Virus record (IMG/VR): IMGVR_UViG_3300045988_157791
Reading direction: 5' to 3' (one strand)
From: a virus
Lineage: Duplodnaviria; Heunggongvirae; Uroviricota; Caudoviricetes
Length of the DNA stretch: 64,000 nucleotides
The position numbers and the translations under genes are program-made. Of this stretch, positions 7,345-63,947 are shown one piece after another. A model generated the notes under the pieces. It did not search any database. It was not told the origin of the DNA and saw only the letters and a program-made list of their open reading frames with translations. Every line of letters starts with the position of its first letter. Position 1 is the stretch's first letter.

Positions 7345-7405
7345 AGCCTGCTTCCGTATATATTTAATAAGTTACTTATTATTTATATATACAGATGCAG
7401 GTCTT
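7345..7405. repeat. long hairpin with AT-rich loop (copy 1 of 2)
   Basis: GCCTGCTTCCGTATAT...ATATATACAGATGCAGG inverted repeat; near-identical element at 37366-37425. Confidence 0.5.
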
Positions 7406-9254: not shown

Positions 9255-9952
9255 GCAGCCATCTCCCCGGAAGAGATCTTCTCCGCATATGCCACAAATG
9301 CGTCTACCCCGCTTTCTCCCGTCATTTCTTCCATGTGGGCAAGCAAATCACCAACAACAATGGCAGAGCCAGCAGGAAGCGTTTTAAAGCCCAATACGTC
9401 GACAACACGTACTTCTTCCGCTGCAACTTCACGACTGATCTCGGTGTGTTCATCCTTCTGTCGTTTAGTTTCTTCGCCAAGATCGATAACTAGCGAGTCG
9501 GTGTCCATTTCTTCTGTCATACTGCCAACGAGAACATTCAACTCACGCTCTTCAAAGCCGAAAACCTCGATATCGTCCAGAACAAGCGACTCAAGCTCTT
9601 TCTGTAGCTTAATTGCATCGTAATCAATGCTGGCAAGTCGGTTATCTTCAAGGCGCTTCGCACGAACCTCGTCATCACTGAGATCATCGCGAACAATAAC
9701 CGGTACGCGCTCAAGTCCAGCAAAAATTGCAGCCTCACGGCGGCCATGACCAGTAATAATTACGTCGTTCTTATCGACCGTAATTGGCTGGTCAAATCCG
9801 CGCTTTTTAATGGCTGCGGCCAGATCTCTGATCTGCTGTTCATCATGCTTTTTGGCATTCATCTCATAGGGAATAAGATCTGCCGGGTCGCGATATACGA
9901 TTTCAAACTTTTTGGTCATTACATACGCTCCTTGTAGTAGTCGACCAGCCAC
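9251..9952 (-). CDS. ParB N-terminal (ParB/Srx) domain protein
   Basis: ITGHGRREAA motif characteristic of ParB-N nuclease/NTPase-like domain. Confidence 0.55.
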   Translation of the reverse strand: MAGRLLQGAYVMTKKFEIVYRDPADLIPYEMNAKKHDEQQIRDLAAAIKKRGFDQPITVDKNDVIITGHGRREAAIFAGLERVPVIVRDDLSDDEVRAKRLEDNRLASIDYDAIKLQKELESLVLDDIEVFGFEERELNVLVGSMTEEMDTDSLVIDLGEETKRQKDEHTEISREVAAEEVRVVDVLGFKTLPAGSAIVVGDLLAHMEEMTGESGVDAFVAYAEKISSGEMAA

Positions 9953-10617
9953 ACCAGAGCCTCACCAGCGTTCTCCATTTCATTACCGGTGTTAATAGCC
10001 TGCTCTTTGATGATGTTTTTTATGGTTTCTGCAACACGATCTGACGCATCGAAAGTTACTTTGAAGCGCATGGTCTGATGTTCCGCACCCACACGTTCGG
10101 TTTTCTCTCGTTTGTCGGTATCGACAGGCTCATCACTACCACGAGACAACGCCTCCAGTGCTTCAAGGTCGATTGCCGCCTCTTTTGCTAAAACCATCGA
10201 GATTTCGTCGTCATACGGGGCGATTTCAGACAGTTGATAGTCAAGTTCTGACTGAATTTCTTCAATGAAGCGTTGCAATGCGATTTGGTCGTCTTCACCG
10301 TATCGCTCGTTGTCCACCAGTGACATCTGTTTAGCTACGACATCGCTAATTTTGCCCACAGAAAGCACCGGAACCGTTGAAATTCCTTGCTCAATAGCGG
10401 CACGCCAGCGATGTTCGCCGCCGAGGATTTCAAAAAATCCATCTTCAAGTTCACGAGCCAAAATTGGCTTAAAAAAGCCCAATTTTTCGATAGAACCTTT
10501 CAGTTTTTCAAAATTCTGCGCACCAACCGAATTGGTGTTCCAGGTATTCGGGCGAAGGTTGGCAACATCAACCTGCAAAATCGTGATTTTTACATCCATT
10601 TTATTGCTACAATCCAC
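9919..10617 (-). CDS. ParB N-terminal (ParB/Srx) domain protein, second paralogous domain
   Basis: ILGGEHRWRAA motif; overlaps start of previous gene. Confidence 0.55.
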   Translation of the reverse strand: MDCSNKMDVKITILQVDVANLRPNTWNTNSVGAQNFEKLKGSIEKLGFFKPILARELEDGFFEILGGEHRWRAAIEQGISTVPVLSVGKISDVVAKQMSLVDNERYGEDDQIALQRFIEEIQSELDYQLSEIAPYDDEISMVLAKEAAIDLEALEALSRGSDEPVDTDKREKTERVGAEHQTMRFKVTFDASDRVAETIKNIIKEQAINTGNEMENAGEALVWLVDYYKERM

Positions 10618-10681
10618 TAAGTAATCACTTACTTATTATAATAGCCAAATAACATACAAAAGGCACTAAGGAAAGAGGTTT

Positions 10682-12241
10682 ATGACTGTTCGGATTGTAT
10701 CTAACGCAGTAAATGCGCTTATTTCTGGCGCAGATGACAAGGTAAAGCAACTGGTGCAGCAAATGTTGAGCTACGAAGTCGAGACTGGCGACTGGAAGGG
10801 CACAAGCACGATGTTCAACTGGAGTAAAAACTCGTTCCCTGCTGGCTTTGCCAAGCCTGTAGCGGCGAACTTGAACAAGGCGGGCATCAAATGTGTTCAT
10901 ATCCGCAAAGACAAAGCCCCGGCGCTTGGAAAGCCAAATCCGGCGGTTAACCCATTCCCATACAATCCTGATTATGCGTATCAGGATCAGACTGTGGAAA
11001 CACTAGTTCGCGAGGGAATGATGATTGCGCAGATCGCTACTGGTGGCGGGAAATCTAATGTTGCCTGCAAAGCAGCTGCACGTATCGGTCGAATGACATT
11101 ATTTTTAACAACCCGCTCTGTTCTGATGTTTCAAATGGCCGAAAACTTCCAGAGATCCATCGACTACCGCGCCAAAAATGGCGAACCGTGGTTAAAAGAC
11201 CAAAAGGTTGGAGTCATTGGCTCGGGTGAGTTCCAGGTATCACGACATATCAACGTCGCTACAGTTCAAACTCTGGCAAGTTTCCTTGAAGAACCACCAC
11301 GCGATGCAACACCAGATAAGAAGAGCTACCACCTCAAACGTCGGGACTTGGTGAAACGCTTCCTTTCAAGTGTGTCTCTGCTTATTCTGGAAGAGGCGCA
11401 TGAGTCTTCAGGCTCTAATTTCTATGACATCGCCAGATTATGTGTGAACGCAGACTATCGTCTGGCGCTTACAGCCACGCCGTTCATGAAGGATTCTACA
11501 GAAGCCAACATGCGTCTGATGGCTGTGGCCGGGCGAATTGAAATTAAAGTCACAGAAAAGTACCTGATTGATCGAGGCATTCTGGCAAAACCGTACTTCC
11601 TTTATCATAAAGTTGCTTACAAGCCAGACGAGGTCAGAATCAAGGCGGAACTTGCCAACAAACACCTTAATTTTAGAGTAGGTATGAGCACTGCCTACCA
11701 AAAGGCTTATCAGTTGGGGATCGTGTATAATTTGGGACGTAACGAGGCCATTGTGCGCGAAGCATTGCTCTATAAGCAACATTCTCTCAATTGTATGACT
11801 CTGGTTCGTCTTAAACGCCACGGGCAAATCCTGATGGAGATGATGAAGGAGTCCGGCCTTAGAGTTGACTTCATTTATGGGGAATCGAACCAGGCGACAA
11901 GGCAAGCAAAGCTGAACAGTTTAGCGTCTGGCGAAATAGATGTTTTAATAGGCTCGACTATTCTGGATGTCGGTGTTGATGTGCCAAGCGTGGGCGCGGT
12001 CATTCTTGCTGGTGGTGGGAAAGCAGAAGTTGAAATGAGACAGCGTGTCGGTCGTGGCTTACGAGCAAAAAAAAATCAGGCAAACGTGTGTTTTATCACT
12101 GATTTCATTGACATTAGCAACAAATACCTGTTGTCTCACTCTTATGAGCGAAAACACATCATCGACACCACACCTGGCTTTGCAGAAGGTGTATTGCCTA
12201 TTGATGGCGCATTCGATTTTGGAGTTCTGAAACGAGATTAG
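10682..12241 (+). CDS. SF2 DEAD/DEAH-box helicase
   Basis: Walker A TGGGKS, motif II LILEEAHE, motif III TATP, motif VI QRVGRGLR; RBS AAGGAAAGAGG upstream. Confidence 0.7.
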   Translation: MTVRIVSNAVNALISGADDKVKQLVQQMLSYEVETGDWKGTSTMFNWSKNSFPAGFAKPVAANLNKAGIKCVHIRKDKAPALGKPNPAVNPFPYNPDYAYQDQTVETLVREGMMIAQIATGGGKSNVACKAAARIGRMTLFLTTRSVLMFQMAENFQRSIDYRAKNGEPWLKDQKVGVIGSGEFQVSRHINVATVQTLASFLEEPPRDATPDKKSYHLKRRDLVKRFLSSVSLLILEEAHESSGSNFYDIARLCVNADYRLALTATPFMKDSTEANMRLMAVAGRIEIKVTEKYLIDRGILAKPYFLYHKVAYKPDEVRIKAELANKHLNFRVGMSTAYQKAYQLGIVYNLGRNEAIVREALLYKQHSLNCMTLVRLKRHGQILMEMMKESGLRVDFIYGESNQATRQAKLNSLASGEIDVLIGSTILDVGVDVPSVGAVILAGGGKAEVEMRQRVGRGLRAKKNQANVCFITDFIDISNKYLLSHSYERKHIIDTTPGFAEGVLPIDGAFDFGVLKRD

Positions 12242-20579: not shown

Positions 20580-21400
20580 CTCTCTATAGGCGTTAATGCT
20601 CACTCCTTCCAGAACGTTCTATACGGCGACTATTTCTGTTGGTGAATTGGGTGTGTTGTTTTCCCTGTCGGTGTATGTGGTTTCGTTCGTTTTGCGATGG
20701 TTCTTCTATGGGGTGTTCTCGTCGTTTTGGTGATTGTTCTTCTCCGTGTATGGAGTAATGGCAGGTGGGCGATTCCTTTCGTTATTGTGTTTGAGTTGTT
20801 TGTCTGGAGTGCGTGAAGGGCTTTTGTAGTTATTCGTGTATTGGGTAATGGCGTTTCCCGTGATTGTTATGTTTCGTGTCTTTTGGGATTGAGAGAAACC
20901 TTGCGGTTACAGGCTTCGTTGGGGTTTCAGTGATTCTGATGTTTCTTCGCTGTTTGGGTAATGGCGTGTCGTGGGTATCGCGCGTATGAATGTTTTCGGA
21001 TTGCCTGTGAAAGTTAGGTTGGTTGTCCGGTAGCCTGGGAAGAAGAGGTGGGTCTTTTCGGTAGCCTGCCATAAAGAGGTTGGTTGTTTTTGGTAATGGC
21101 ATATGTGTTATTTAGTTGTTTTGTTATACCTGAAAATAAGTTGTTTATATGGTTATGTAACGCAACGGGAGCGATTTTGAGCGTGTGTTTTTGTTGGTAG
21201 TGTGTTGGGTCGTCTGTGGTGAAAATTGGACGCTGTGGCGCTGTCTGCTGCGTAGAGTTACGGGTATAAGAAGTGATGTGTGAAAACGTCAATTTTTTAG
21301 ACCAAATCGGGTGAAAGCGTTGACGTTTCGTTGATCTGTTATTTAGTTGTTTTCTTATTTGTATAAACAACCATAACCTATTGATATTTAATGATGTGAT
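20580..21400. repeat. GT-skewed non-coding tract with degenerate ~100 bp tandem units
   Basis: Plus strand almost devoid of C-runs; recurring ...GTGTATTGGGTAATGGCG... at ~20751, 20841, 20953, 21090; GTTATTTAGTTGTTTT repeated at 21108 and 21337. Confidence 0.5.
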
Positions 21401-21489: not shown

Positions 21490-22059
21490 TTAGTTGTTCA
21501 GATAAACATTTGGAACACGGACGTAGAAGTTCCTGTCGCCGGTAAGTTCCAGAGTAATGTTAATGTCATTACCATTGTCTAGTGTAGCCGTTGCTCTATA
21601 GAACTTATCCGTCACCTTGTCCTCTATTGTCACCTTCATACATTTTGGTGCAGTCGAACCGTTATTCTCTTTCAGAATAGTTGTCACGAGAGGGCAGGCT
21701 GCTTCTTCAAGAGCAACCTCGTCCTTGTGTGGGATGCCGATGAAGATAACCCAAGCCAGCGACGCAACGATTATGATAAATGGCACTCTGCTGCCTTTTG
21801 TAATAGTCGCGCGCTTCCAGAGATAGACAGGCAGGAGGAATACCCCCCATAGAATTGAAGGTGGTTCACAGCCAGACTCCGATAGAGCCATTCTGTCAGC
21901 TACTAACAAACCGATGGTAGTTACACCCCCAATTATAATAGCGTAATTGGTATACTCTTCCGGCGATACTCCAAAGAAGAAAGGCATGAACGCTAGAATC
22001 CACGCATAAATGTTATTCAGAGGTTTTGTTTGTTGGTTCTGGGTTTCCATCACATCCAT
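21490..22059 (-). CDS. putative membrane protein
   Basis: 189 aa with several hydrophobic helices in N-terminal half (AWILAFMPFFFGV, IIIGGVTTIGLLV, ILWGVFLLPVYLW, FIIIVASLAWVIFIG). Confidence 0.45.
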   Translation of the reverse strand: MDVMETQNQQTKPLNNIYAWILAFMPFFFGVSPEEYTNYAIIIGGVTTIGLLVADRMALSESGCEPPSILWGVFLLPVYLWKRATITKGSRVPFIIIVASLAWVIFIGIPHKDEVALEEAACPLVTTILKENNGSTAPKCMKVTIEDKVTDKFYRATATLDNGNDINITLELTGDRNFYVRVPNVYLNN

Positions 22060-22211
22060 TCCATCACATAAAAATCGCGTTTATATATTATCAATTTTCT
22101 CACTTGTATAACCTAAATACGCATCCGTTTATCAATCCACCTTCCACAAACATCAGCTTTAGCTATGAAAAATAACAATCTCAAAGTGAAAACCATTATC
22201 ATAGGAAACGA

Positions 22212-22397
22212 TTAGATGAGATGGTCTAATTCATCATCTATCATTGCTTTAACACTTGAGTCATTAACCCCGTATTGATTTATGAACCGTTTCAGCTCCG
22301 GTGAAAACTGAAGGTAGATATCGTGAGCGTTTTTCACTGTAGGTTCAACGCCACGCATTTCAAGCGCCTTTAGTAGATATGAGTCTTCTTTAAGCAT
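22212..22397 (-). CDS. small hypothetical protein
   Basis: 61 aa ORF downstream of 22434..22742. Confidence 0.3.
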   Translation of the reverse strand: MLKEDSYLLKALEMRGVEPTVKNAHDIYLQFSPELKRFINQYGVNDSSVKAMIDDELDHLI

Positions 22398-22433
22398 AAA
22401 TTCTCCGTTGTCTAGTATGAAGCGATTGCCGGA

Positions 22434-22742
22434 TTACCATTGCCAGCACTCTAGCCCTTCAACGACCGGTGCACCACAATCAAAATGTACAGAGTCAAAG
22501 CCTACATCAAGTACTTTCTGAATGTTCGCAATCGCGCCCTCGGATATACCATATCGACGCAACTCATCTTTCCAGTCATCGTCCTGTAACCCGGCGTGGA
22601 CAATGCAACCGTACTCAATTTGTGAAACCCAATCCAGCTCATTGCTTGCGATCATGAATCGGCGAGCATCTTCCTCTGATGTATGAGATGAGCTGATCAA
22701 TGCCACCTGGTAGGCTTGGGTAATGTTCAACATTTCAACCAC
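22434..22742 (-). CDS. hypothetical protein
   Basis: 102 aa; preceded by conserved block (GATAAT ... GAAAACAACTTGTTTT). Confidence 0.35.
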   Translation of the reverse strand: MVEMLNITQAYQVALISSSHTSEEDARRFMIASNELDWVSQIEYGCIVHAGLQDDDWKDELRRYGISEGAIANIQKVLDVGFDSVHFDCGAPVVEGLECWQW

Positions 22743-22839
22743 TCCAAAACAAGTTGTTTTCTTATGTGGTTTATTATCTCCATCAACAAAAGGCAGAAAA
22801 CAAATTGTTTTAGGTACTGTGTAAATCAGAAGGGATTGT

Positions 22840-22876
22840 GTCTATATGAAAATGCCCGGCGTGTTGCCGGGCATTG
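22840..22876 (-). terminator. intrinsic terminator downstream of metG
   Basis: GCCCGGCAACACGCCGGGC hairpin followed by ATTTTCAT on minus strand. Confidence 0.6.
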
Positions 22877-22894
22877 CGAAGAGAGGTTGTTTAA

Positions 22895-24928
22895 TTACTT
22901 AACCTGGTGGCCAGGTTTAGCACCAGCATCCGGGCTTAACAGGAAGATATCTTTCCCGCCGGGGCCAGCAGCCATCACCATGCCTTCAGAGATACCGAAG
23001 CGCATTTTACGTGGTGCCAGGTTAGCCACCATAATGGTGTGACGACCAATCAGTGCCTGCGGATCCGGGTAGGCAGAACGAATACCGGAGAAGACATTGC
23101 GTTTTTCACCGCCGAGATCCAGTGTCAGGCGCAGCAGTTTGTCAGAACCTTCAACAAACTCTGCGTTTTCGATCAGCGCTACGCGCAGGTCAACTTTGGC
23201 GAAGTCGTCAAAGGTGATGGTTTCCTGAATCGGATCATCTGCCAGTGGGCCAGTAACTGGCGCGGCAGCTGCTTTCACTTCTTCTTTAGACGCTTCCACC
23301 AGTGCTTCAACCTGCTTCATATCGATGCGGTTATACAGTGCCTTGAACGGATTTACTTTATGGCCCAGCAGCGGTTGCTGGATACCATCCCAGGTCAGTT
23401 CTGTATTCAGGAATGCTTCTGCACGTTCAGTCAGTTTCGGCAGTACCGGCTTCAGGTACGTCATCAGCACGCGGAACAGGTTAATGCCCATAGAGCAAAT
23501 CGCCTGCAGATCGGCATCGCGTCCTTCCTGCTTCGCCACCACCCACGGAGCCTGTTCATCGACATAGCGGTTAGCCAGGTCAGCCAGTGCCATGATTTCA
23601 CGGATAGCTTTACCAAATTCGCGGCTTTCCCACGCTTCACCAATCACTTCAGCGGCATCAGTGAAGGTTTTGTACAACTGCGGGTCAGCCAGCTCGCTTG
23701 CCAGCACACCGTCAAAACGCTTATTGATAAAGCCAGCGTTACGGGACGCCAGGTTAACCACTTTGTTCACGATATCGGCATTCACACGCTGAACGAAATC
23801 CTCCAGGTTGAGATCGATATCATCAATGCGCGAAGAGAGTTTCGCAGTGTAGTAGTAACGCAGGCTGTCAGCGTCAAAATGATTCAGCCAGGTGCTGGCT
23901 TTAATAAAGGTGCCGCGAGACTTGGACATCTTCGCGCCGTTCACCGTCACATAGCCATGAACAAACAGGTTGGTCGGCTTGCGGAAGTTGCTGCCTTCCA
24001 GCATGGCAGGCCAGAACAGGCTGTGGAAGTAAACGATATCTTTACCGATGAAGTGGTACAGCTCGGCGGTGGAGTCTTTCTTCCAGTATTCATCGAAGCT
24101 TACGCTGTCGCCGCGCTTGTCGCACAGATTCTTGAAAGAACCCATGTAGCCAATCGGTGCGTCCAGCCAGACGTAGAAATATTTGCCCGGCGCGTTCGGA
24201 ATTTCAAAACCGAAGTAAGGGGCGTCGCGGGAGATATCCCACTGTTGCAGGCCAGATTCAAACCACTCCTGCATTTTATTTGCCACCTGCTCCTGCAACG
24301 CACCGCTGCGGGTCCATGCCTGCAACATTTCGCTGAAAGAGGGCAGATCAAAGAAGAAGTGTTCAGAATCACGCATTACCGGCGTAGCACCAGAAACCAC
24401 CGATTTCGGTTCAATCAGTTCAGTCGGGCTGTAGGTCGCGCCGCAGACTTCACAGTTATCGCCGTATTGATCTGGCGCTTTACATTTCGGGCAGGTGCCT
24501 TTCACAAAACGGTCCGGCAGGAACATGCCTTTTTCCGGATCGTACAGCTGAGAGATGGTGCGGTTTTTAATAAAACCGTTTTCTTTCAGGCGAGAGTAGA
24601 TAAGTTCTGACAACTGGCGGTTCTCTTCGCTGTGCGTCGAGTGATAGTTGTCATAGCTGATGTTAAAGCCTGCGAAATCAGTCTGATGTTCCTGACTCAT
24701 TTCGCCAATCATCTGCTCCGGTGTGATACCAAGCTGCTGAGCTTTAAGCATGATCGGCGTGCCGTGGGCATCGTCGGCGCAGATGAAGTTGACCTCGTGG
24801 CCGCGCATTCGCTGGTAACGGACCCAGACATCAGCCTGGATGTGCTCCAGCATATGGCCGAGGTGGATTGAGCCGTTAGCGTACGGCAGCGCGCACGTCA
24901 CCAGAATTTTCTTCGCGACTTGGGTCAT
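22895..24928 (-). CDS. metG: methionine--tRNA ligase
   Basis: 677 aa from [26 protein letters not shown] (HIGH motif) ... KMSKS ... C-terminal tRNA-binding domain; near-identical to Escherichia MetG as recalled; ORF-track N-terminal 43 aa extension rejected. Confidence 0.95.
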
Positions 24929-25085
24929 AGTAGGCATTACTTCTTTGTAGTGAAAAGGGGCTTGATAGTAACAAAATGGCCTTATGTCTGCCATGTGATA
25001 ACAGCATTTCTCATAAATGATTAAATGTCGTAGCTGGAGTACACTACAAGGCGACAATTGCGCAAATTAAAATAAAGGAGACGGG

Positions 25086-26186
25086 ATGAGCGAGTCCAAA
25101 TCGCCGGATGCCCTGAGAGCAATGGTAGCCGGTACGCTGGCTAATTTTCAGCACCCAACCCTGAAACACAACCTGACTACGCTTAAAGCGTTACACCATG
25201 TTGCGTTGATGGATGACACACTGCATGTCGAACTAATCATGCCTTTCGTGTGGAATAAGCCTTTTGAAGACCTGAAAGAGCAATGTAGTGGTGATCTGCT
25301 CCGTATCACTGGCGCAAAGGCTATTGACTGGAAGCTGTCGTACAACATTGCCACGCTTAAGCGCGTCAAAAACCAACCAGGCATTAATGGCGTTAAGAAC
25401 ATTATCGCCGTCAGCTCAGGCAAGGGCGGCGTAGGTAAATCCTCCACGGCGGTAAATCTGGCACTGGCGTTGGCTGCTGAAGGTGCGAAAGTTGGTATTT
25501 TGGATGCCGATATCTATGGTCCATCAATTCCAACCATGCTGGGCGCGGAAAACCAACGTCCAACCTCACCGGACGGTACTCACATGGCACCTATCATGTC
25601 TCATGGCCTGGCAACCAACTCTATTGGTTATCTGGTCACCGACGACAATGCAATGGTGTGGCGTGGACCGATGGCCAGCAAGGCGCTGATGCAGATGTTG
25701 CAGGAAACTCTATGGCCTGATCTGGACTATCTCGTTCTCGATATGCCGCCGGGCACTGGTGATATTCAGTTGACGCTGGCGCAGAACATTCCTGTAACTG
25801 GTGCGGTTGTGGTAACTACGCCGCAAGACATCGCGCTGATCGATGCGAAGAAAGGCATTGTGATGTTCGAAAAAGTCGAAGTGCCGGTACTGGGTATCGT
25901 CGAAAACATGAGTGTGCATATTTGCAGTAACTGCGGTCATCACGAGCCAATTTTTGGCACCGGTGGCGCACAGAAACTGGCCGAGAAATACAACACGCAG
26001 TTGTTAGGCCAAATGCCACTTCATATCTCTCTTCGTGAAGATCTGGATAACGGAACACCAACCGTTATTAGTCGTCCAGATAGCGAATTTACGGCTATTT
26101 ATCGTGACCTCGCAGATCGCGTTGCTGCCCAAATGTATTGGCAAGGTGAAGTAATACCTGGCGAAATCGCATTCCGCGCAGTGTGA
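25086..26186 (+). CDS. apbC: Mrp/ApbC Fe-S cluster carrier ATPase
   Basis: P-loop SGKGGVGKS, CxxC (CSNCGH); divergent from metG as in the enterobacterial chromosome. Confidence 0.9.
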   Translation: MSESKSPDALRAMVAGTLANFQHPTLKHNLTTLKALHHVALMDDTLHVELIMPFVWNKPFEDLKEQCSGDLLRITGAKAIDWKLSYNIATLKRVKNQPGINGVKNIIAVSSGKGGVGKSSTAVNLALALAAEGAKVGILDADIYGPSIPTMLGAENQRPTSPDGTHMAPIMSHGLATNSIGYLVTDDNAMVWRGPMASKALMQMLQETLWPDLDYLVLDMPPGTGDIQLTLAQNIPVTGAVVVTTPQDIALIDAKKGIVMFEKVEVPVLGIVENMSVHICSNCGHHEPIFGTGGAQKLAEKYNTQLLGQMPLHISLREDLDNGTPTVISRPDSEFTAIYRDLADRVAAQMYWQGEVIPGEIAFRAV

Positions 26187-26214
26187 TAAAAAGGCGGTGC
26201 AATGCACCGCCTAA
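26186..26214 (-). terminator. hairpin terminator between apbC and UmuD'-like gene
   Basis: GGCGGTGCAATGCACCGCC; on minus strand followed by TTTTTATC. Confidence 0.5.
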
Positions 26215-26223
26215 TCAGTTCTC

Positions 26224-26613
26224 CTACATCACGGGACAATCATCAAACTCGCCACTTCTTGCGTCGTTGATAATGTGAGTGATCACACCAAACACGGCAT
26301 TGCTGCCCGTGCATCCATCGTCATCCTTTGGCAATGCTTCCTTCTTACCGGTTCTTAAATCCTCCAGATGCTGACGTGGGTACTTCCGGTATCTTTTTAC
26401 GCGATATTCCCCATCCAGAGCGCATACAAGCAGAGAACCATCAACTGGGGTAAGTGAGGAATCAACCACCAGCAATGCACCCTGTAATATTCCCTCACGA
26501 TGATGACTATCAGCTGCCCGCATGAAGTAGGTCGCTGAAGGATGTCTGATTAGTTGCTGATCAAGAGAAATACGGCTCTCTGCATAATCCGCCGCAGGAG
26601 AAGGGAAGCCCAT
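26224..26613 (-). CDS. UmuD'-like protein (natively lacks the UmuD N-terminal arm; HumD-type)
   Basis: Starts M-GFPSPAADY, i.e. at the position of the UmuD Cys24-Gly25 cleavage site; in-frame TAA 9 nt upstream prevents extension; S24 peptidase-fold C-terminal domain. Confidence 0.6.
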   Translation of the reverse strand: MGFPSPAADYAESRISLDQQLIRHPSATYFMRAADSHHREGILQGALLVVDSSLTPVDGSLLVCALDGEYRVKRYRKYPRQHLEDLRTGKKEALPKDDDGCTGSNAVFGVITHIINDARSGEFDDCPVM

Positions 26614-26712
26614 AGCGTTTTACCTCAATGATACTGTTTATTCATACAGTATACATTGAAAAGGCATAGTTTGTGAAAGCGGGGTTTGCAGGCGCGCCAC
26701 GCTGGGGGCTAA

Positions 26713-27063
26713 TCACATTGGTGGCGTGAACTTGCCATTCATATATTGCAAAATGCTTGACTCAATTTTTTCATTAAAATCAGAATGATGCTCCTCAAGG
26801 ACAAAGCGCGCCTTATTGTTGCGCACAATAACCTCCGCCAACGGACTAACCAGAGATGTGGAGTTAGAGATTTTCTCGGCGCGCTCTACATCGCTTTTAA
26901 ACGTTACGATGAAGTGCTGGTGGCCTGGTGACCGGCGACACAACATGCGTCGCACTTCCACGGTATCTTCACGGCCTTGAGTATGTACAGGAAAGCTATC
27001 GACCACCGCTGTATTGGTGCGGATTGTCTGCATAGAACGCGTGTTGTCGTGATAGTTAAGCAT
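26713..27063 (-). CDS. hypothetical protein
   Basis: ORF track 26713..27105; start uncertain (ATG 27063 has best RBS). Confidence 0.3.
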   Translation of the reverse strand: MLNYHDNTRSMQTIRTNTAVVDSFPVHTQGREDTVEVRRMLCRRSPGHQHFIVTFKSDVERAEKISNSTSLVSPLAEVIVRNNKARFVLEEHHSDFNEKIESSILQYMNGKFTPPM

Positions 27064-27088
27064 GTTTAATGTCTTCCCCATCTTGCCG

Positions 27089-27340
27089 TTATTTTCTTGG
27101 TGCATCCTCGTTCTGATACACCGGATGGCTTCCTTTTGGCAACTGGAGGCTTAACTGCCGGTAGTGCCGTAACCGTTCCATGAAATAGGTGCGCAGGTTC
27201 TCTGGTTGCTCGCGGGCTACCTGTTCAGCTATGACAGGTATGTTCAATCGCTCTTTGTACGCCACACCGCTGGCAGCCAGATCAACGTTAACCTTATCCC
27301 GTTCTTCCTGACTTTTAGCTGCAATATTCCAGTCGCTCAT
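27089..27340 (-). CDS. DNA polymerase III theta subunit homologue (HolE/Hot-like)
   Basis: [43 protein letters not shown] closely parallels HolE ([43 protein letters not shown], from memory). Confidence 0.65.
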
Positions 27341-37365: not shown

Positions 37366-37425
37366 AGCCTGCTTCCGTATATTAATAATTAATATGTAGT
37401 TATTTATATATACAGAAGCAGGCTA
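37366..37425 (-). terminator. long hairpin with AT-rich loop (copy 2), probable terminator of methylase gene
   Basis: GCCTGCTTCCGTATAT...ATATATACAGAAGCAGGC; on minus strand followed by GTTTTGTAT. Confidence 0.45.
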
Positions 37426-40238: not shown

Positions 40239-40883
40239 CTAATGAACGGTCACTCGGCCACAGAACCGGTTTTCTATCTTTTCTACAGCGTTATCTAGCA
40301 TTCTCATCACTGATCTGGCTCTTGCTTCAACCGTGCGATATCGGTTGGAAACGACGAAGGTTTGCAGATCTCCCCTTTGCGGATGCAGGTGAATTTTTGT
40401 CAGTTCCCCGCACATCAACGCATCAATACGAGCGACATACAGACGGTCTAATGATGCTCGTTGTGATCGCAAGTAATCTCGCTCTGAGAGAGCGACTCCC
40501 GGGCGTAAGCCAGCAATGGCGTTAAAGTTTGAAATAGCAGTTTTGTGGCAAAACTTTTCGATATCGAGGGCTAACTCAATACACCGATCTTCATTTGTAT
40601 GGCCGACCAAATCCAACGTGTAGGCCATAACATCAGCAGGTGTGCGATCGATAACAAAGCCTTCAACACCACGCGTAAGTAGCTCTATATGCTTTGCTAT
40701 TTCCATTTGAATCTGAAGCCGCTCATATAGAGGCATAGAATCACCTACTCGAACACCGAGGCGGCTCATCAAACTTCCGACACCAGCATCCACGTAAGGG
40801 ATTCCGTAATGTTTGTCGATATATTTAGCCAGGGTTGTTTTCCCACTGCCCTGAGCACCAGTGATCCCAATCCGGTAATCCAT
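40239..40883 (-). CDS. P-loop NTPase, putative nucleoside/nucleotide kinase
   Basis: Walker A GITGAQGSGKTTLAK at N-terminus; context among nucleotide-metabolism genes. Confidence 0.45.
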   Translation of the reverse strand: MDYRIGITGAQGSGKTTLAKYIDKHYGIPYVDAGVGSLMSRLGVRVGDSMPLYERLQIQMEIAKHIELLTRGVEGFVIDRTPADVMAYTLDLVGHTNEDRCIELALDIEKFCHKTAISNFNAIAGLRPGVALSERDYLRSQRASLDRLYVARIDALMCGELTKIHLHPQRGDLQTFVVSNRYRTVEARARSVMRMLDNAVEKIENRFCGRVTVH

Positions 40884-41359
40884 TACGACCTTCTGTATAC
40901 GATCTGCGAAAAGCCAGGCTCTTCCTCGCTGGCTCGTTGGGTATAAGCTGTTTCAACAGGCACAAAGCCTAAATTACGCATCATGCTTGCCGGGAAGAAT
41001 GCATCGGCGTTTGGCACATCAACGCCGATGTGGGAGAGCCAAATCTCTTCAACATGCGGCATGAATAGCGAGTAAATTTGTTCCCCGCCAATCACCCACA
41101 CAGGCTCTGGTAATCGCAACACATCATCCACACCAGCAGGGTAGAATCCATTTGGTACAAAGCCATGAGAGCGCGTCAAAACGAGGTTATGACGCTCTGG
41201 AAGAGGGCGTTTGAGACTTTCCATCGTTTTACGCCCCATAACGACAGTGGCGTTTTTGGTGAGTCTCTTAAATAGCTTCAGATCGGTAGAACAACGCCAG
41301 GGGAGTTCATTCGCTATGCCGATCTCATAGTTACGGCCAACAGCAGCGATCATCTTCAT
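40883..41359 (-). CDS. folA: dihydrofolate reductase
   Basis: 158 aa; MIAAVGRNYEIG..ELPW, VVMGRKT.ESL..PLP.R, VWVIGGEQIY match DHFR pattern. Confidence 0.75.
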   Translation of the reverse strand: MKMIAAVGRNYEIGIANELPWRCSTDLKLFKRLTKNATVVMGRKTMESLKRPLPERHNLVLTRSHGFVPNGFYPAGVDDVLRLPEPVWVIGGEQIYSLFMPHVEEIWLSHIGVDVPNADAFFPASMMRNLGFVPVETAYTQRASEEEPGFSQIVYRRS

Positions 41360-53160: not shown

Positions 53161-53810
53161 TTATCCACTGGATAGATCCAAATAAGAGATCCCAAGTAAG
53201 ATCAAATAGAAGATCCAAAGAGATCCCCGATCGCCTCTAGCCGTTGCGGTTACTGGTCTGAAAGGGTGTTGCCATCCACTATGGAGAGCAAAGAAACCTC
53301 TGTAGAGAGCTGAATAACCGCTATGAAGAGTAAAACAACCACTCTGGAGAGCTGTATATATCCACTGTAGAGAGTAGAGCACATTGTCTTTTATGGATAA
53401 CTTAATGACTTAATTCTTCATTAACATACTGATATACATAGATATATTTTAAACTCTACTCTTAGTCATGATTCTTATGTCCTTAAATATCCACAGAAGA
53501 GTAGAGTTACCTGTTCTTGAAATCCTCTGATTTTTATCCACAGGCCCGATCCAGTAATTCAGATCACAAAGAGAACCAAAGAGACCCATAAAGACCCAAT
53601 AAGATCCCCGCCCACCTCAAACCGTTGTGCCATCTGCCTTCAGACATGATCGATATCCACTATAGAGAGCGAATAATCCACTATAGGGAGCAAAGCAACC
53701 ACTATAGAGAGGAGAAAAACCACTATAGACGGTAGGATAACCGCTGTGATGAGTGCTACTATCCACTGTAATCAGCAAAGGCCACCAAAGCCGTCGAATA
53801 ACAAGAGACA
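53161..53810 (+). promoter_or_regulatory. plasmid-type replication origin: two GATC clusters, DnaA-box-like sites, two sets of 21-bp-phased iterons
   Basis: Six GATC in 53176-53232 and more at 53548-53651; TTATCCACA at 53534; iterons (A/T)NCCACT(A/G)T(A/G)GAGAG at 53275,53296,53317,53338,53360 and 53655,53676,53698,53719,53740,53761. Confidence 0.7.
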
Positions 53811-53816
53811 TTTGGA

Positions 53817-54872
53817 ATGAGCGAAAACGGCAATAAAAACATAGCGATCGTTGAAGCATTTTCAGAAACAGATAAAAAGACAGGCGAAGTTGTTACGTTG
53901 GTTCCTAACACTAATAACACTGTTCAGCCTGTTGCTTTGATGCGTCTGGGCCTCTTCGTTCCGACGCTGAAATCGACATCCAGAGGAAGAAAGGGGCAAA
54001 TGGTCTCTATGGATGCCTCTGCTGAACTCAAACAGCTGTCTCTGGCAAAAGCCGAAGGGTACGAAGACATAAGGATCTCTGGCCTTCGGCTTGATATGGA
54101 TAACGACTTTAAAACGTGGGTGGGAATAATCCACGCGTTTGCCAAACACAAGGTCGTTGGCGATACTGTCACGTTGCCGTTCGTTGAGTTTGTAAGGCTG
54201 TGTGGCATTCCGACCGCCAGGTCATCAGCGAAGTTACGCAAACGCCTGGACAGTTCGCTAAGCCGTATTGCCACAAATACCATCTCGTTCCGTAGCAAAG
54301 GCTCTGATGAGTTTTACGTAACGCATCTTGTGCAAACGGCAAAATATAGTGTCAAGCACGATACGGTCGAACTGAAAGCAGATCCCAAGATTTTCGAACT
54401 CTACCAGTTCGACAAAAAGGTTCTTCTGCAACTCCGGGCTATAAACGAACTCTCAAGAAAAGAATCCGCTCAGGCGCTTTATACTTTTATTGAAAGTTTG
54501 CCGCCTGATCCGGCACCAATATCACTAGCCCGTTTACGCGCCAGACTTAATCTGACAAGTCGCACTATTACTCAGAATGCGACGGTAAGAAAGGCTATGG
54601 AACAGCTGCGAGAGATAGGATATCTCGATTACACGGAAGTTAAGCGCGGAAACTCGGTCTACTTCGTCATCCACTATAGGCGGCCAAAGTTACGCCAGGC
54701 ACAAATATCAACAAAAATCGATAATGATGAGACGGAATATAGCCTCCCAGATGAGAATCAAGATGACATTATCGACGTTGTGCCTGACGAAAAAGAAGGC
54801 AAAATGGTCATGTTGAGTAAAGAAGAACTGGCGCTTCTCGAAGAGTTGCGCAAGGCAAAGACTCGCAAATAG
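53817..54872 (+). CDS. repA: iteron-binding replication initiator RepA (P1/RepFIB family)
   Basis: [54 protein letters not shown] closely parallel P1-type RepA as recalled; flanked by iterons. Confidence 0.7.
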
Positions 54873-54873
54873 C

Positions 54874-55360
54874 CCAACCACTGTAGTTAGTAGTAAGGCT
54901 CACTATCCACTGTAGTGAGCCTTACTTATATCTGTAATTCGCTATCCACTATAGTGAGTATCGTTATCTGTTGATAACCACTGTAGGCAGTAGAATGCAA
55001 ATACTGAATTAAATGTTAGTGATCACTAACACTGATGAAACAAGGGCTGCGAGGTTAGTGGTCACTGGGTATCTTGGAAAATTTACTGTCTATAGTGGTT
55101 GTTGTCGCCCTCATCTTTGAGCGTATCCACTGTGGCGAGTGGATATCCACTGAAAACAGCAAAGGCTTACTCACCATAGTGGATACCCGCTGGACATCTC
55201 ACTCCAATACTCACCATAGTGGTTGTTTGATGCGAATGAAAGGCTGTCTACTCGCTACAGTGGTTAGCAGATATGTAGGAAGGTTTTGTTACTGACTACA
55301 GTGGATAATGAGCTGGATACGAATGCGGTGAGTAGTCTGCTCACCGCAGTGGTTGGTGCT
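54874..55360. repeat. downstream iteron array (incA-like), both orientations
   Basis: About 12 copies of CCACTGTAG / CCACTATAG or inverse CTATAGTGG / CTACAGTGG. Confidence 0.65.
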
Positions 55361-63127: not shown

Positions 63128-63456
63128 TGATGCCCGCCAATTGGCGGGCATCTGTTCTCTGTAAAGGTGTCTGGCATCGTCTGGTTCGTTAACGTTTACT
63201 AAACCAATGGTGACAAAAATTAGTTATCTTTGAAAAATAAAGGTTGCATGAAAAGAAGGGGTATGCGTTAATAGCATCGTTGGTTTGCAAGACAGACCTT
63301 ATGTAAGCAGTTTTAGTAAAGCAGTCTCAGTTCAGTGTTATCTTCTGATTTCCCTTCTTCGTGAGTCTCCTCCTTAAGTGCCTAAGTAAGTCCCAATCTA
63401 TACAGATCAAATTCTCGCCGCACTATGTGGCTCACAAAATTAAGAAGGTAATATCT

Positions 63457-63672
63457 ATGTCTAATAAAATGACTGGTTTAGTAAAATGGTTTAACTCTGA
63501 TAAAGGCTTTGGCTTTATTTCTCCTGCTGATGGCAGTAAAGATGTTTTTGTACATTTTTCGGCAATTCAGAGTAATAATTTCCGCACTTTGGAAGAAGGC
63601 CAGCAGGTCGAATTCTCTATCGAGAATGGGGCTAAAGGCCCAGCAGCAGCAAATGTCGTTGCTCTAAGCTGA
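63457..63672 (+). CDS. CspA-family cold-shock protein
   Basis: [38 protein letters not shown] (RNP1/RNP2); ORF-track start 63361 rejected in favour of ATG 63457 with AAGAAGG RBS. Confidence 0.85.
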
Positions 63673-63947
63673 TTCAACGCTGATGATCCTCATTTCTACA
63701 ATAACGAAGACGGTGTAAGCCTGAGTGGATAGATTTGCAGGATTGTACAAGTTGAATAAATTAGCATGGTAAGGCCATGCTAATTAAATCGACACAACGG
63801 CCAGTTTATTCCATAAAAGTGAATTGCCCATTGTGGCGAAATGCGGGGTTGCCGCATGAATAGTCAAAGGCAGAAGCTAACTGCCGGCATGGCAAAACAA
63901 AGTGCGTAAGAGGAGTGACTTCCTCAACAAGCGCCATAATTCTTTAT

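Follow-up and report, generated by a model that had tools for sequence, protein, structure and literature searches.

A few phages and giant viruses encode aminoacyl-tRNA synthetases, for which a boost of translation has been proposed. Methionyl-tRNA synthetase (MetRS) charges both the initiator and the elongator Met-tRNA, and its gene, metG, is essential. The closest described system is the plasmid-borne metG of Shigella sonnei (pWPMR2), which yields a tolerant or persister subpopulation favouring antibiotic survival (Tam et al. 2024, medRxiv 10.1101/2024.10.27.24316207, via PMC12452169). A metG gene on a phage-plasmid is already known from that work, as cited in PMC12452169, and tolerance is the sole phenotype that the latter account reports, for S. 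sonnei only. The pWPMR2-like clade is also the subject of bioRxiv 10.1101/2025.09.12.675607. Changes in metG that confer persistence reduce MetRS function or expression (PMC11004401). Our literature search beyond Tam et al. found no other paper describing a cassette of metG and apbC.

The window analysed here, a stretch of 64,000 nt, comes from a phage-plasmid of the SSU5 supergroup, specifically of the E. coli/Shigella clade to which pECOH89, phage Cyrano and the S. sonnei plasmid LR213459 belong. In our favoured reading, which we consider probable, this phage-plasmid carries a chromosome-derived, self-contained metG-apbC accessory cassette in a variable slot between its accessory and DNA-metabolism arms. 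LR213459, which stands in here for pWPMR2 of the literature, shares the backbone family, the slot and the gene pair with the window: its apbC is 98.6% identical, the spacer between the genes is the same 157 nt and metG likewise measures 2,034 nt. The two differ in the enzyme. MetRS of LR213459 has three substitutions (G134C, A410T and D565E) that occur in no other allele compared, the window included, and D565E lies four residues from ETIT (569-572), the segment whose deletion gives tolerance.

Assignment to the supergroup follows from both arms. The flanks are 95-98% identical to Escherichia phages PhiR41_1, CMS-2020a and Cyrano and approximately 79% identical to SSU5; for the siphovirus-type structural module (terminase, portal, capsid, tail; positions 1-21476) the same values are found against PhiR41_1/CMS-2020a and SSU5, respectively, and the order of genes is syntenic. 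Portal, terminase (TerL), capsid, ParB and RepA are all annotated in a close relative. Of the plasmid maintenance functions, both repA and ParB-type partition genes are present. A search of 5,426 complete E. coli genomes with the portal/terminase backbone gave 245 matches in 237 genomes, all on plasmids and none on a chromosome, with an identity of at least 95% in 216 of the 237. In the same genomes metG is plasmid-borne in 220 places. PLSDB holds approximately 189 plasmids with the apbC allele of the window at 95-100% identity, the next matches reaching only about 83%. Near-identical genomes have been deposited as phages as well, namely Cyrano and PhiR41_1 (recorded host K-12 MG1655).

Comparison of relatives shows that practically every member of this clade has the cassette, which neither SSU5 nor the sister clade carries. 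Cyrano, PhiR41_1, CMS-2020a, pECOH89 and related SSU5-like 'phage-like plasmids' have the architecture (about 108-112 kb), the cassette and the junctions of the window. They vary in the gene to the left of the metG terminator (a DUF5983 gene in the window, other small open reading frames or a DUF1380 gene elsewhere) and in the metG alleles, which are up to about 5.8% apart. The sister lineages SSU5 and E. coli S56 plasmid B are syntenic with the window on both sides of the slot, but the slot itself lacks metG and apbC: SSU5 has a RelA/SpoT-like gene and ydfZ instead, and S56 plasmid B has ISKox3, ydfZ and an LprI-family gene.

The layout of the block is given in Table 1. The original prediction of a full-length metG and a divergent apbC in about 3.4 kb is borne out by the open reading frames and the NCBIfam equivalog matches; the listing of open reading frames also offers metG a longer version with a TTG start at 25057. 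Its placement between two phage modules proved right too, with a head-morphogenesis, partition and accessory arm on the left (capsid, portal, terminase, ParB) and a DNA-metabolism arm on the right (humD, hot, methylases, rnhA, DHFR, thymidylate synthase, nrdAB, repA). The composition of the block is distinct: GC content across 23001-26000 is 0.50-0.52, above the 0.42-0.43 of the two intervals on its left and the 0.45-0.48 of the five that follow on its right.

Table 1. Coordinates of the cassette and of neighbouring features in the window
Feature	Position	Strand	Description
Backbone motif AAACAANTTGTTTTCT, two copies	22744-22813		Immediately outside the metG terminator
metG terminator-like hairpin	22842-22875	minus	AATGCCCGGC-AACAC-GCCGGGCATT; 10-bp stem, 5-nt loop, T-rich tail
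metG	22895-24928	minus	ATG-started open reading frame, 677 aa, 2,034 nt
Divergent control region	24929-25085		157-nt spacer between metG and apbC
apbC/mrp	25086-26186	plus	366 aa, 1,101 nt, divergent from metG
apbC-humD hairpin	26192-26212		9 bp, G+C-rich, between convergent apbC and humD
humD (UmuD'-like)	26224-26613	minus	Right-hand context
repA	53817-54872		Flanking CCACTATAGAGAG repeats (iterons)

Two intergenic motifs recur throughout the backbone: AAACAANTTGTTTTCT matches the window 24 times (0.26 expected) and TAGGTAAGTANTTACCTA 21 times (0.12 expected). Between 22842 and 26223 we found no copy of either, as had been foreseen, and the nearest are the two copies of AAACAANTTGTTTTCT listed in the table. 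These mark the point where the backbone resumes and thus place the left boundary of the cassette at about 22814-22842. On the right, homology to P1-type phage-plasmids begins at about 26225-26234 (87-90% identity for humD), so humD lies outside the chromosomal capture. No tRNA genes were found in the window and no Rfam families in or near the block, the sole match in the window at gathering score being a cspA thermoregulator (63279-63697). An autonomous unit of this kind, with its own control region and hairpins, a deviant composition and a position between phage modules, resembles phage morons and auxiliary metabolic genes. Unlike these, it carries as cargo an essential housekeeping gene that the host already possesses, and the two copies remain recombinationally coupled.

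The terminators had been described as native-looking, which holds for their form but not for their origin, as they are unlike the terminators of every sampled chromosome. The metG hairpin is common to the phage-plasmid copies inspected. It was found by eye and is missing from the automatic terminator scan, probably because extension of the stem shortens the T tail that is counted. The hairpin between apbC and humD is called by the scan on the minus strand and has no T run on the apbC strand, which makes it a terminator in the direction of humD. It also displays a compensatory double change (GGCGG...CCGCC in the window, GGTGG...CCACC in two relatives). The spacer is near-invariant, with few variable positions in the 10 phage-plasmid copies extracted, and is composed of two parts: the 47 nt adjoining metG are Escherichia-like (89-94% identity) and include a putative extended -10-like element (TGnTACTAT, assigned by eye), and the part nearer apbC is similar to Citrobacter only, at about 77-79% identity. 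A sigma-70 promoter scan of the spacer gave no strong or convincing match.

Both products match their chromosomal equivalogs well above the NCBIfam cut-offs (MetRS: NF001100, 1019 bits against 587, residues 4-677; ApbC: NF008669, 759 bits against 348). A profile search of the metG product returned PF09334, PF19303 and PF01588, and all elements of a dimeric-type MetRS are intact: HLGH, KMSKS (residue 333), the Zn knuckle CPKC...CEVC, the anticodon-binding domain and the C-terminal tRNA-binding domain. Differences from the K-12 enzyme are limited to S151A, S319T, V442I and R538K, each of which also occurs in Escherichia chromosomes, and a chromosome-sized contig of 5.0 Mb encodes an identical protein. 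The window allele encodes a wild-type-like MetRS. A variant or resistant MetRS was considered as well and is ruled out for this allele, given that the four changes are conservative and shared with chromosomes. ApbC, a P-loop NTPase and Fe-S cluster carrier, retains the deviant Walker A motif (GKGGVGKS) and the CXXC motif (CSNC). Residues private to its phage-plasmid allele fall mostly within the N-terminal 69 positions.

The suggestion that the block is captured chromosomal DNA stands, as the divergent mrp-metG arrangement of K-12 is kept and both proteins are equivalogs of chromosomal enzymes. With the K-12 locus the cassette shares the orientation of the pair, the gene lengths, the protein functions and the 47 nt directly preceding metG. 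It departs from that locus in its terminators, in the spacer on the apbC side and in lacking yehE and yehF. Chromosomal homology extends from the metG stop codon on one side to 47 nt upstream of the metG ATG on the other. ApbC of the window has a three-residue N-terminal deletion relative to K-12, with 94.5% amino-acid and 82% nucleotide identity. Recent capture from E. coli can be ruled out on the basis of this 82%, together with the non-Escherichia terminators and most of the spacer.

The two genes have different histories. Among the 80 best loci, the nucleotide identity of apbC is highest to chromosomes of Escherichia, Citrobacter and S. diarizonae, at 80-84%, and falls below that for all others. 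Synonymous divergence (dS) amounts to 1.2-1.8 from Escherichia and 1.4-2.0 from Citrobacter, and the gene branches outside the crown of Escherichia in the tree. No donor species was found among the best 80 of 484 relatives (at most 95% amino-acid and 84% nucleotide identity) by a pattern-based scan of ApbC against genome contigs, which could miss a lineage. Relative to the sampled chromosomes, apbC is an orphan, deep-branching lineage. Within the phage-plasmids it is strictly conserved: across 11 copies 81 sites are polymorphic, 73 of these being third codon positions, yet the copies encode only two distinct proteins, with dN = 0 at dS 0.02-0.10. Up to 24 nucleotide differences from the window leave the protein unchanged in 10 of the 11 copies. 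For metG the dN/dS against other phage-plasmid copies is 0.008-0.018. Both genes are intact and under strong purifying selection, very strong for apbC. What causes the strict conservation of ApbC is not accounted for by our favoured explanation.

The metG gene groups with Escherichia alleles, with 92-97% nucleotide identity to Escherichia and 87% to Citrobacter. A metG match is present in all 5,426 E. coli genomes and chromosomal in 5,424, so the plasmid copy is additional to the chromosomal one. No match of the window allele in these genomes exceeds 97.0%, because the allele has its own conversion tracts. These are evident from comparison with the near-identical pSCU-306-2, from which the window differs at one of 1,395 nt in the left flank, 0 of 157 in the spacer and 0 of 1,101 in apbC, that is one mismatch in 2,653 flanking bases, against 88 mismatches in the 2,034 nt of metG. 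In 81 of these 88 cases the base in the window is one found in E. coli chromosomes. This concentration of chromosomal bases in metG points to gene conversion. At 42 sites the window has a base that none of the four E. coli chromosomal alleles has, and 41 of these match other phage-plasmid alleles. Mosaicism is also supported by a run-length permutation (p <= 2e-4) and a PHI-style homoplasy test (p = 0.001). Together the patterns indicate sequence exchange between metG of the window and an allele from an E. coli chromosome, through gene conversion confined to the chromosome-homologous stretch. Ongoing conversion by the current host was not seen in two phage-plasmid/host pairs; the plasmid and host copies of metG are 129-133 nt apart in these pairs, which makes conversion episodic rather than continuous.

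Overall, the cassette is real, selectively maintained cargo of chromosomal origin that is fixed in its lineage. We infer an ancient joint capture of metG and apbC from a stem- or sister-Escherichia lineage, after which apbC would have kept the depth of the capture and metG would have been drawn toward Escherichia alleles by repeated homogenisation. Possible alternatives to this course of events are a donor whose apbC was unusual and assembly in two steps. In the plasmid state the cassette would be transcribed from its own divergent promoters, and selection may act on the changed supply of MetRS (and ApbC). As the window MetRS is wild-type-like and lacks the substitutions private to S. sonnei, any effect would come from dosage or expression rather than from an altered enzyme. 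The published persistence changes lower MetRS function or expression and an extra wild-type-like copy should do the opposite, so the step from dosage to tolerance is weak for the window allele.

These results describe a mobile element, both phage and plasmid, that takes an additional copy of an essential translation enzyme into E. coli, E. albertii and Shigella; its backbone was detected in 237 (about 4%) of the 5,426 complete genomes of E. coli. According to PMC12452169, the plasmid-borne metG has been linked to survival of antibiotics in epidemic S. sonnei. The strict conservation of ApbC, the discordant ages of the genes and the chromosomal conversion of plasmid metG may be additions to the published record, and they suggest that ApbC deserves attention besides metG. 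For surveillance, they suggest that plasmid and chromosomal metG alleles be typed jointly. The phage-plasmid identity, the old and lineage-fixed capture, the discordant gene histories and the prior description in the literature all go beyond the original prediction.

A stronger version of this history, which we put forward only tentatively, regards the cassette as an ancient resident with diverging fates for its two genes: apbC would survive from an unsampled stem-Escherichia lineage, its protein held fixed by a role peculiar to the phage-plasmid, and metG, still close enough to recombine, would swap tracts with the chromosomal metG of one host after another. If true, the phage-plasmid would act as a shuttle of essential translation-gene alleles between Escherichia lineages and could seed tolerance-relevant metG variants in chromosomes.

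Turning to other functions, the cassette could serve the phage itself, the extra MetRS and Fe-S carrier boosting translation and metabolism in lytic growth. Its presence in separately deposited phage genome records, its position beside a large nucleotide and DNA-metabolism module (nrdAB, thymidylate synthase, DHFR, rnhA) and the strong purifying selection are all in line with this. We nevertheless regard it as unlikely: a separate control region free of backbone motifs suggests expression independent of the phage programme, neither SSU5 nor the sister clade needs the cassette for viability, and the encoded MetRS is identical in protein to an enzyme that the host already has.

Less probable still is a back-up or addiction module, in which the plasmid metG frees the chromosomal gene to gather deleterious or tolerance-conferring changes and the phage-plasmid becomes hard to lose. 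Such a role would draw on the essentiality of metG, on the raised persistence of mutants with reduced metG function (PMC11004401) and on the recombination between phage-plasmid and chromosomal copies. Yet the chromosomal gene is retained almost throughout the E. coli genomes, as described above, and both carrier hosts that were examined encode the common wild-type MetRS (WP_001338997.1) on the chromosome, with no damaged copy seen.

It is highly improbable that the cassette is neutral, hitch-hiking chromosomal DNA that arrived by illegitimate recombination and awaits purging. The slot does hold variable cargo, with an IS element and unrelated genes in relatives, but neutrality is at odds with an ApbC protein that is unchanged in 10 of 11 copies, a metG dN/dS of about 0.01-0.02, the compensatory change in a terminator stem, near-universal presence in the clade and tightly trimmed boundaries. 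Among the rows inspected, only isolated copies are suspect: one record has metG as two class I tRNA ligase fragments, and another carries no metG annotation.

Finally, an assembly chimera or an ordinary prophage integrated beside chromosomal metG, for which nothing speaks except the unexpected gene content, can be dismissed on the evidence of assembled genomes: a 5-kb stretch with both junctions aligns as a single piece at 96-98% identity to circular plasmids of about 106-115 kb in 193 of the 5,426 independent complete genomes, the junctions recur in separately deposited phage records (Cyrano, PhiR41_1), none of the 245 backbone matches is chromosomal, the chromosomal neighbours yehE and yehF are missing, chromosomal homology does not reach past the metG stop codon and apbC shares only 82% identity with its E. 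coli counterpart. The artefact that had been offered as an alternative to capture is thereby refuted, and for annotation the lesson is that a housekeeping pair among phage genes is not necessarily a misassembly.

The block consists of two complete genes separated by a spacer of 157 nt. The metG product scores 1019 bits against the NCBIfam methionine--tRNA ligase equivalog (cut-off 587) and the apbC product 759 bits against the ApbC equivalog (cut-off 348). Pfam domains are the catalytic, anticodon-binding and C-terminal tRNA-binding ones for MetRS and the NUBPL-type P-loop for ApbC; the HLGH, KMSKS and Zn-knuckle motifs of the former and the Walker A and CXXC motifs of the latter are all intact. 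A hairpin flanks the pair on each side, the one beyond apbC having no T run when read in the apbC direction. At 0.50-0.52, the GC content of the block exceeds that of the DNA on either side (0.42-0.43 immediately left of it, 0.45-0.48 right of it). Two motifs recur in intergenic DNA across the whole window: AAACAANTTGTTTTCT (24 matches against 0.26 expected) and the palindrome TAGGTAAGTANTTACCTA (21 against 0.12); both probably serve the backbone as promoters or operators. A window-wide search for both gave zero copies at 22842-26223, even as two copies of AAACAANTTGTTTTCT lie at 22744-22813, just outside the metG terminator. The original prediction of a metG and divergent apbC block between phage modules, free of the recurrent intergenic motifs, is thus borne out in ORFs, families, hairpins, GC content and motifs alike.

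Positions of the cassette features and of other elements in the window
Feature	Position	Strand or location	Detail
metG	22895-24928	minus	ORF listing, 2,034 nt; ATG start giving MTQVAKK
apbC	25086-26186	plus, divergent from metG	ORF listing, 1,101 nt
metG hairpin	22842-22875	3' of metG	10-bp, T-rich tail; spotted by eye, absent from automatic scan output
apbC/humD hairpin	26192-26212	between convergent apbC and humD	9-bp, G+C-rich; automatic scan, humD strand
Recurrent motifs (examples)	17316, 19454, 22747, 22795, 34207, 34936, 56898; and 5327, 30858, 38052, 47604
humD and hot	26224-27340
DHFR gene	40883-41359	minus	nucleotide-metabolism module
cspA thermoregulator	63279-63697	plus	RF01766, full-length
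repA	53817-54872
Iteron-like repeats	53270-55300	both sides of repA	direct and inverted
57-nt AT-rich element	7345-7401; 37366-37422		two copies
A/C-rich tract	20600-21400		about 800 nt
Paired 36-nt repeats	21024 and 21055; 17408 and 17436

Arm matches, gene content and a plasmid-only backbone show that the window is a stretch of an SSU5-supergroup phage-plasmid of the pECOH89 clade. Its left arm (1-21476) and right arm (26200-48000) are 95-98% identical to the Escherichia phages Cyrano, PhiR41_1 and CMS-2020a, and about 79% to Salmonella phage SSU5. According to the RefSeq annotation of the near-identical relative pSCU-306-2, capsid, portal, large terminase, ParB proteins and helicase lie left of the block, and humD, theta subunit, methylases, RNase HI, DHFR, thymidylate synthase, nrdAB and RepA lie right of it. 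Of 5,426 complete E. coli genomes, 193 have circular plasmids of ~106-115 kb with which the 5 kb spanning both junctions (22000-27000) align in one piece at 96-98%; this stretch also aligns with the same three phages. This recurrence rejects an assembly or composite artefact, one of the two origins originally proposed; the other, capture of chromosomal DNA, is supported by an arrangement that mirrors the K-12 mrp-metG pair. A chromosome with prophages is rejected as well, as the backbone matches plasmids only: 237 of the 5,426 genomes have the portal-terminase segment, every one on a plasmid and none on a chromosome.

Within this clade the cassette is essentially fixed, as can be seen from the counts: 216 of the 237 backbone matches reach at least 95% identity, metG occurs at 220 plasmid-borne places in the 5,426 genomes, and the apbC allele is present at 95-100% on about 189 PLSDB plasmids from E. 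coli, S. sonnei and E. albertii, separated by a gap from chromosomal copies at about 83%. The position itself is a variable cargo slot. Between the same conserved neighbours SSU5 instead holds ydfZ and a RelA/SpoT-like gene, whereas S56 plasmid B, from a sister clade present in E. coli (portal 82% identical), holds ISKox3, ydfZ and an LprI-family gene. The SSU5 gene (85670-86311 in SSU5) is annotated as guanosine polyphosphate pyrophosphohydrolase/synthetase, another translation/stringent-response-linked gene at the position of metG in the clade of the window. The slot also carries a humD-hot module common to P1-type phage-plasmids: humD and hot (DNA polymerase III theta) match P1, P7, D6 and RCS47, with 87-90% identity in the humD segment. 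This sequence similarity points to an exchange of modules between SSU5-type and P1-type phage-plasmids directly beside the cassette. In E. albertii p3RM15116, a shortened 62-kb relative, metG-apbC is kept and genes for a GNAT acetyltransferase and a polysaccharide deacetylase take the place that humD has in the window; shrinkage of the element thus seems to leave the cassette intact.

Since the layout equals that of the chromosomal mrp-metG pair of E. coli K-12, the history begins most simply with joint capture of both genes. Escherichia chromosomes are homologous only from the metG stop codon to 47 nt upstream of the metG start; no sampled chromosome resembles the window in the metG terminator, in most of the spacer or in the hairpin after apbC. 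The depths of the two genes are discordant, giving two genes with two histories. For metG, identity is 92-97% with the chromosomal copies of Escherichia and 87% with Citrobacter, and dS to Escherichia is 0.16-0.42. For apbC, dS is 1.2-1.8 against Escherichia and 1.4-2.0 against Citrobacter, values no shallower than the 1.1-1.5 that separates Escherichia from Citrobacter in the same gene. A tree of first and second codon positions places the phage-plasmid apbC copies in one clade (100% support), outside crown Escherichia (94.5%) and within the Escherichia-Citrobacter-S. diarizonae group (100%). A protein scan with one genome per species yielded no donor-like apbC: among the best 80 of 484 relatives none exceeded 95% amino-acid or 84% nucleotide identity.

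The phage-plasmid metG alleles are up to about 5.8% apart, equal to the divergence between Escherichia species, and their differences form a mosaic. The window is the clearest case of gene conversion. Compared with pSCU-306-2 it has 1 mismatch in 1,395 nt of left flank, 0/157 in the spacer and 0/1,101 in apbC, against 88/2,034 in metG. At 81 of these 88 sites the window carries the base of an E. coli chromosomal allele (CP53 alone accounts for 77), while pSCU-306-2 shares the CP53 base at only 11. Tracts identical to chromosomal alleles (nt 545-884, K-12; 1580-1928, CP53) alternate with phage-plasmid-identical ones (1346-1628), and of the 42 sites differing from all four E. coli chromosomal alleles 41 match other phage-plasmid alleles. 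A run-length permutation of polymorphic sites (p ≤ 2e-4) and a PHI-style homoplasy test (p = 0.001) are both significant. Phage-plasmid-diagnostic sites gather at both gene ends, adjoining the non-homologous flanks, as expected if conversion requires homology on both sides. Conversion is episodic. Plasmid and co-resident chromosomal metG differ by 129 and 133 nt in two carrier strains, and no allele above 97.0% identity to the window metG was found in 5,426 genomes.

Both genes are under strong purifying selection in the phage-plasmid. Among 11 apbC copies 73 of 81 polymorphic sites are third positions and only two distinct proteins occur (dN = 0 at dS up to 0.10); the exact ApbC protein is found on at least 1,000 public contigs. 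For metG, dN/dS is 0.008-0.018 against other phage-plasmid copies. Together with a spacer of only a few variable positions and a compensatory double change in the apbC/humD hairpin, this excludes neutral hitch-hiking. With its own control region, a hairpin on either side and none of the backbone motifs, the block fits the picture of a putative autonomous, moron-like expression unit.

Four residues, each a natural Escherichia polymorphism, set the window MetRS apart from that of K-12, and the exact window protein was also found on a 5.0-Mb contig. All genomes searched have a metG match (chromosomal in 5,424 of 5,426). The window MetRS is an ordinary enzyme, encoded in addition to the chromosomal one. 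The only phenotype reported for phage-plasmid metG is that of Tam et al. (medRxiv 10.1101/2024.10.27.24316207, in the summary given by PMC12452169): in S. sonnei, its expression produces a subpopulation with a predisposition to acquiring cephalosporin resistance. The MetRS of S. sonnei plasmid LR213459 carries G134C, A410T and D565E, private among the alleles examined, the last lying 4 residues from ETIT 569-572, whose deletion in E. coli MetRS gives antibiotic tolerance (PMC11004401). In contrast, the window MetRS has none of these substitutions. Since it is wild-type-like and known persistence metG alleles reduce MetRS function (PMC11004401), the step from an extra copy to tolerance is the weakest link for the window allele.

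Carriage of the metG-apbC pair by this phage-plasmid clade is already known, as is the clade itself; modest additions are the discordance in ancestry, the conversion tracts and the ApbC constraint, which may or may not already stand in the primary paper. The cspA thermoregulator scores 185.7 bits (gathering score 78) and a relative has a cspG cold-shock gene annotated at the matching position, so the phage-plasmid appears to carry a cold-shock gene plus its RNA thermosensor. The DHFR gene is labelled 'trimethoprim-resistant DfrA51' by PGAP in a near-identical relative; a backbone phage gene may therefore be counted as a resistance determinant.

Several repeats were seen in the window. Iteron-like repeats (A)TCCACTATAGAGAG flank repA, and the two copies of the 57-nt element are 81% identical with inverted ends (AGCCTGCTTCCG...CAG(A/G)AGCAGG). 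The tract left of the cassette has few ORFs and, on its minus strand, a strong excess of A and C over G and T (plus-strand AT skew as low as -0.60, GC skew as high as +0.51). It has no match in Rfam, and its counterpart in the RefSeq relative (9903-11490 of locus L001) has zero annotated genes. It holds 3-4 copies of GCCATTAC(C/T)CAA and one of the two pairs of 36-nt repeats, and may be a non-coding RNA or a protein-binding array.
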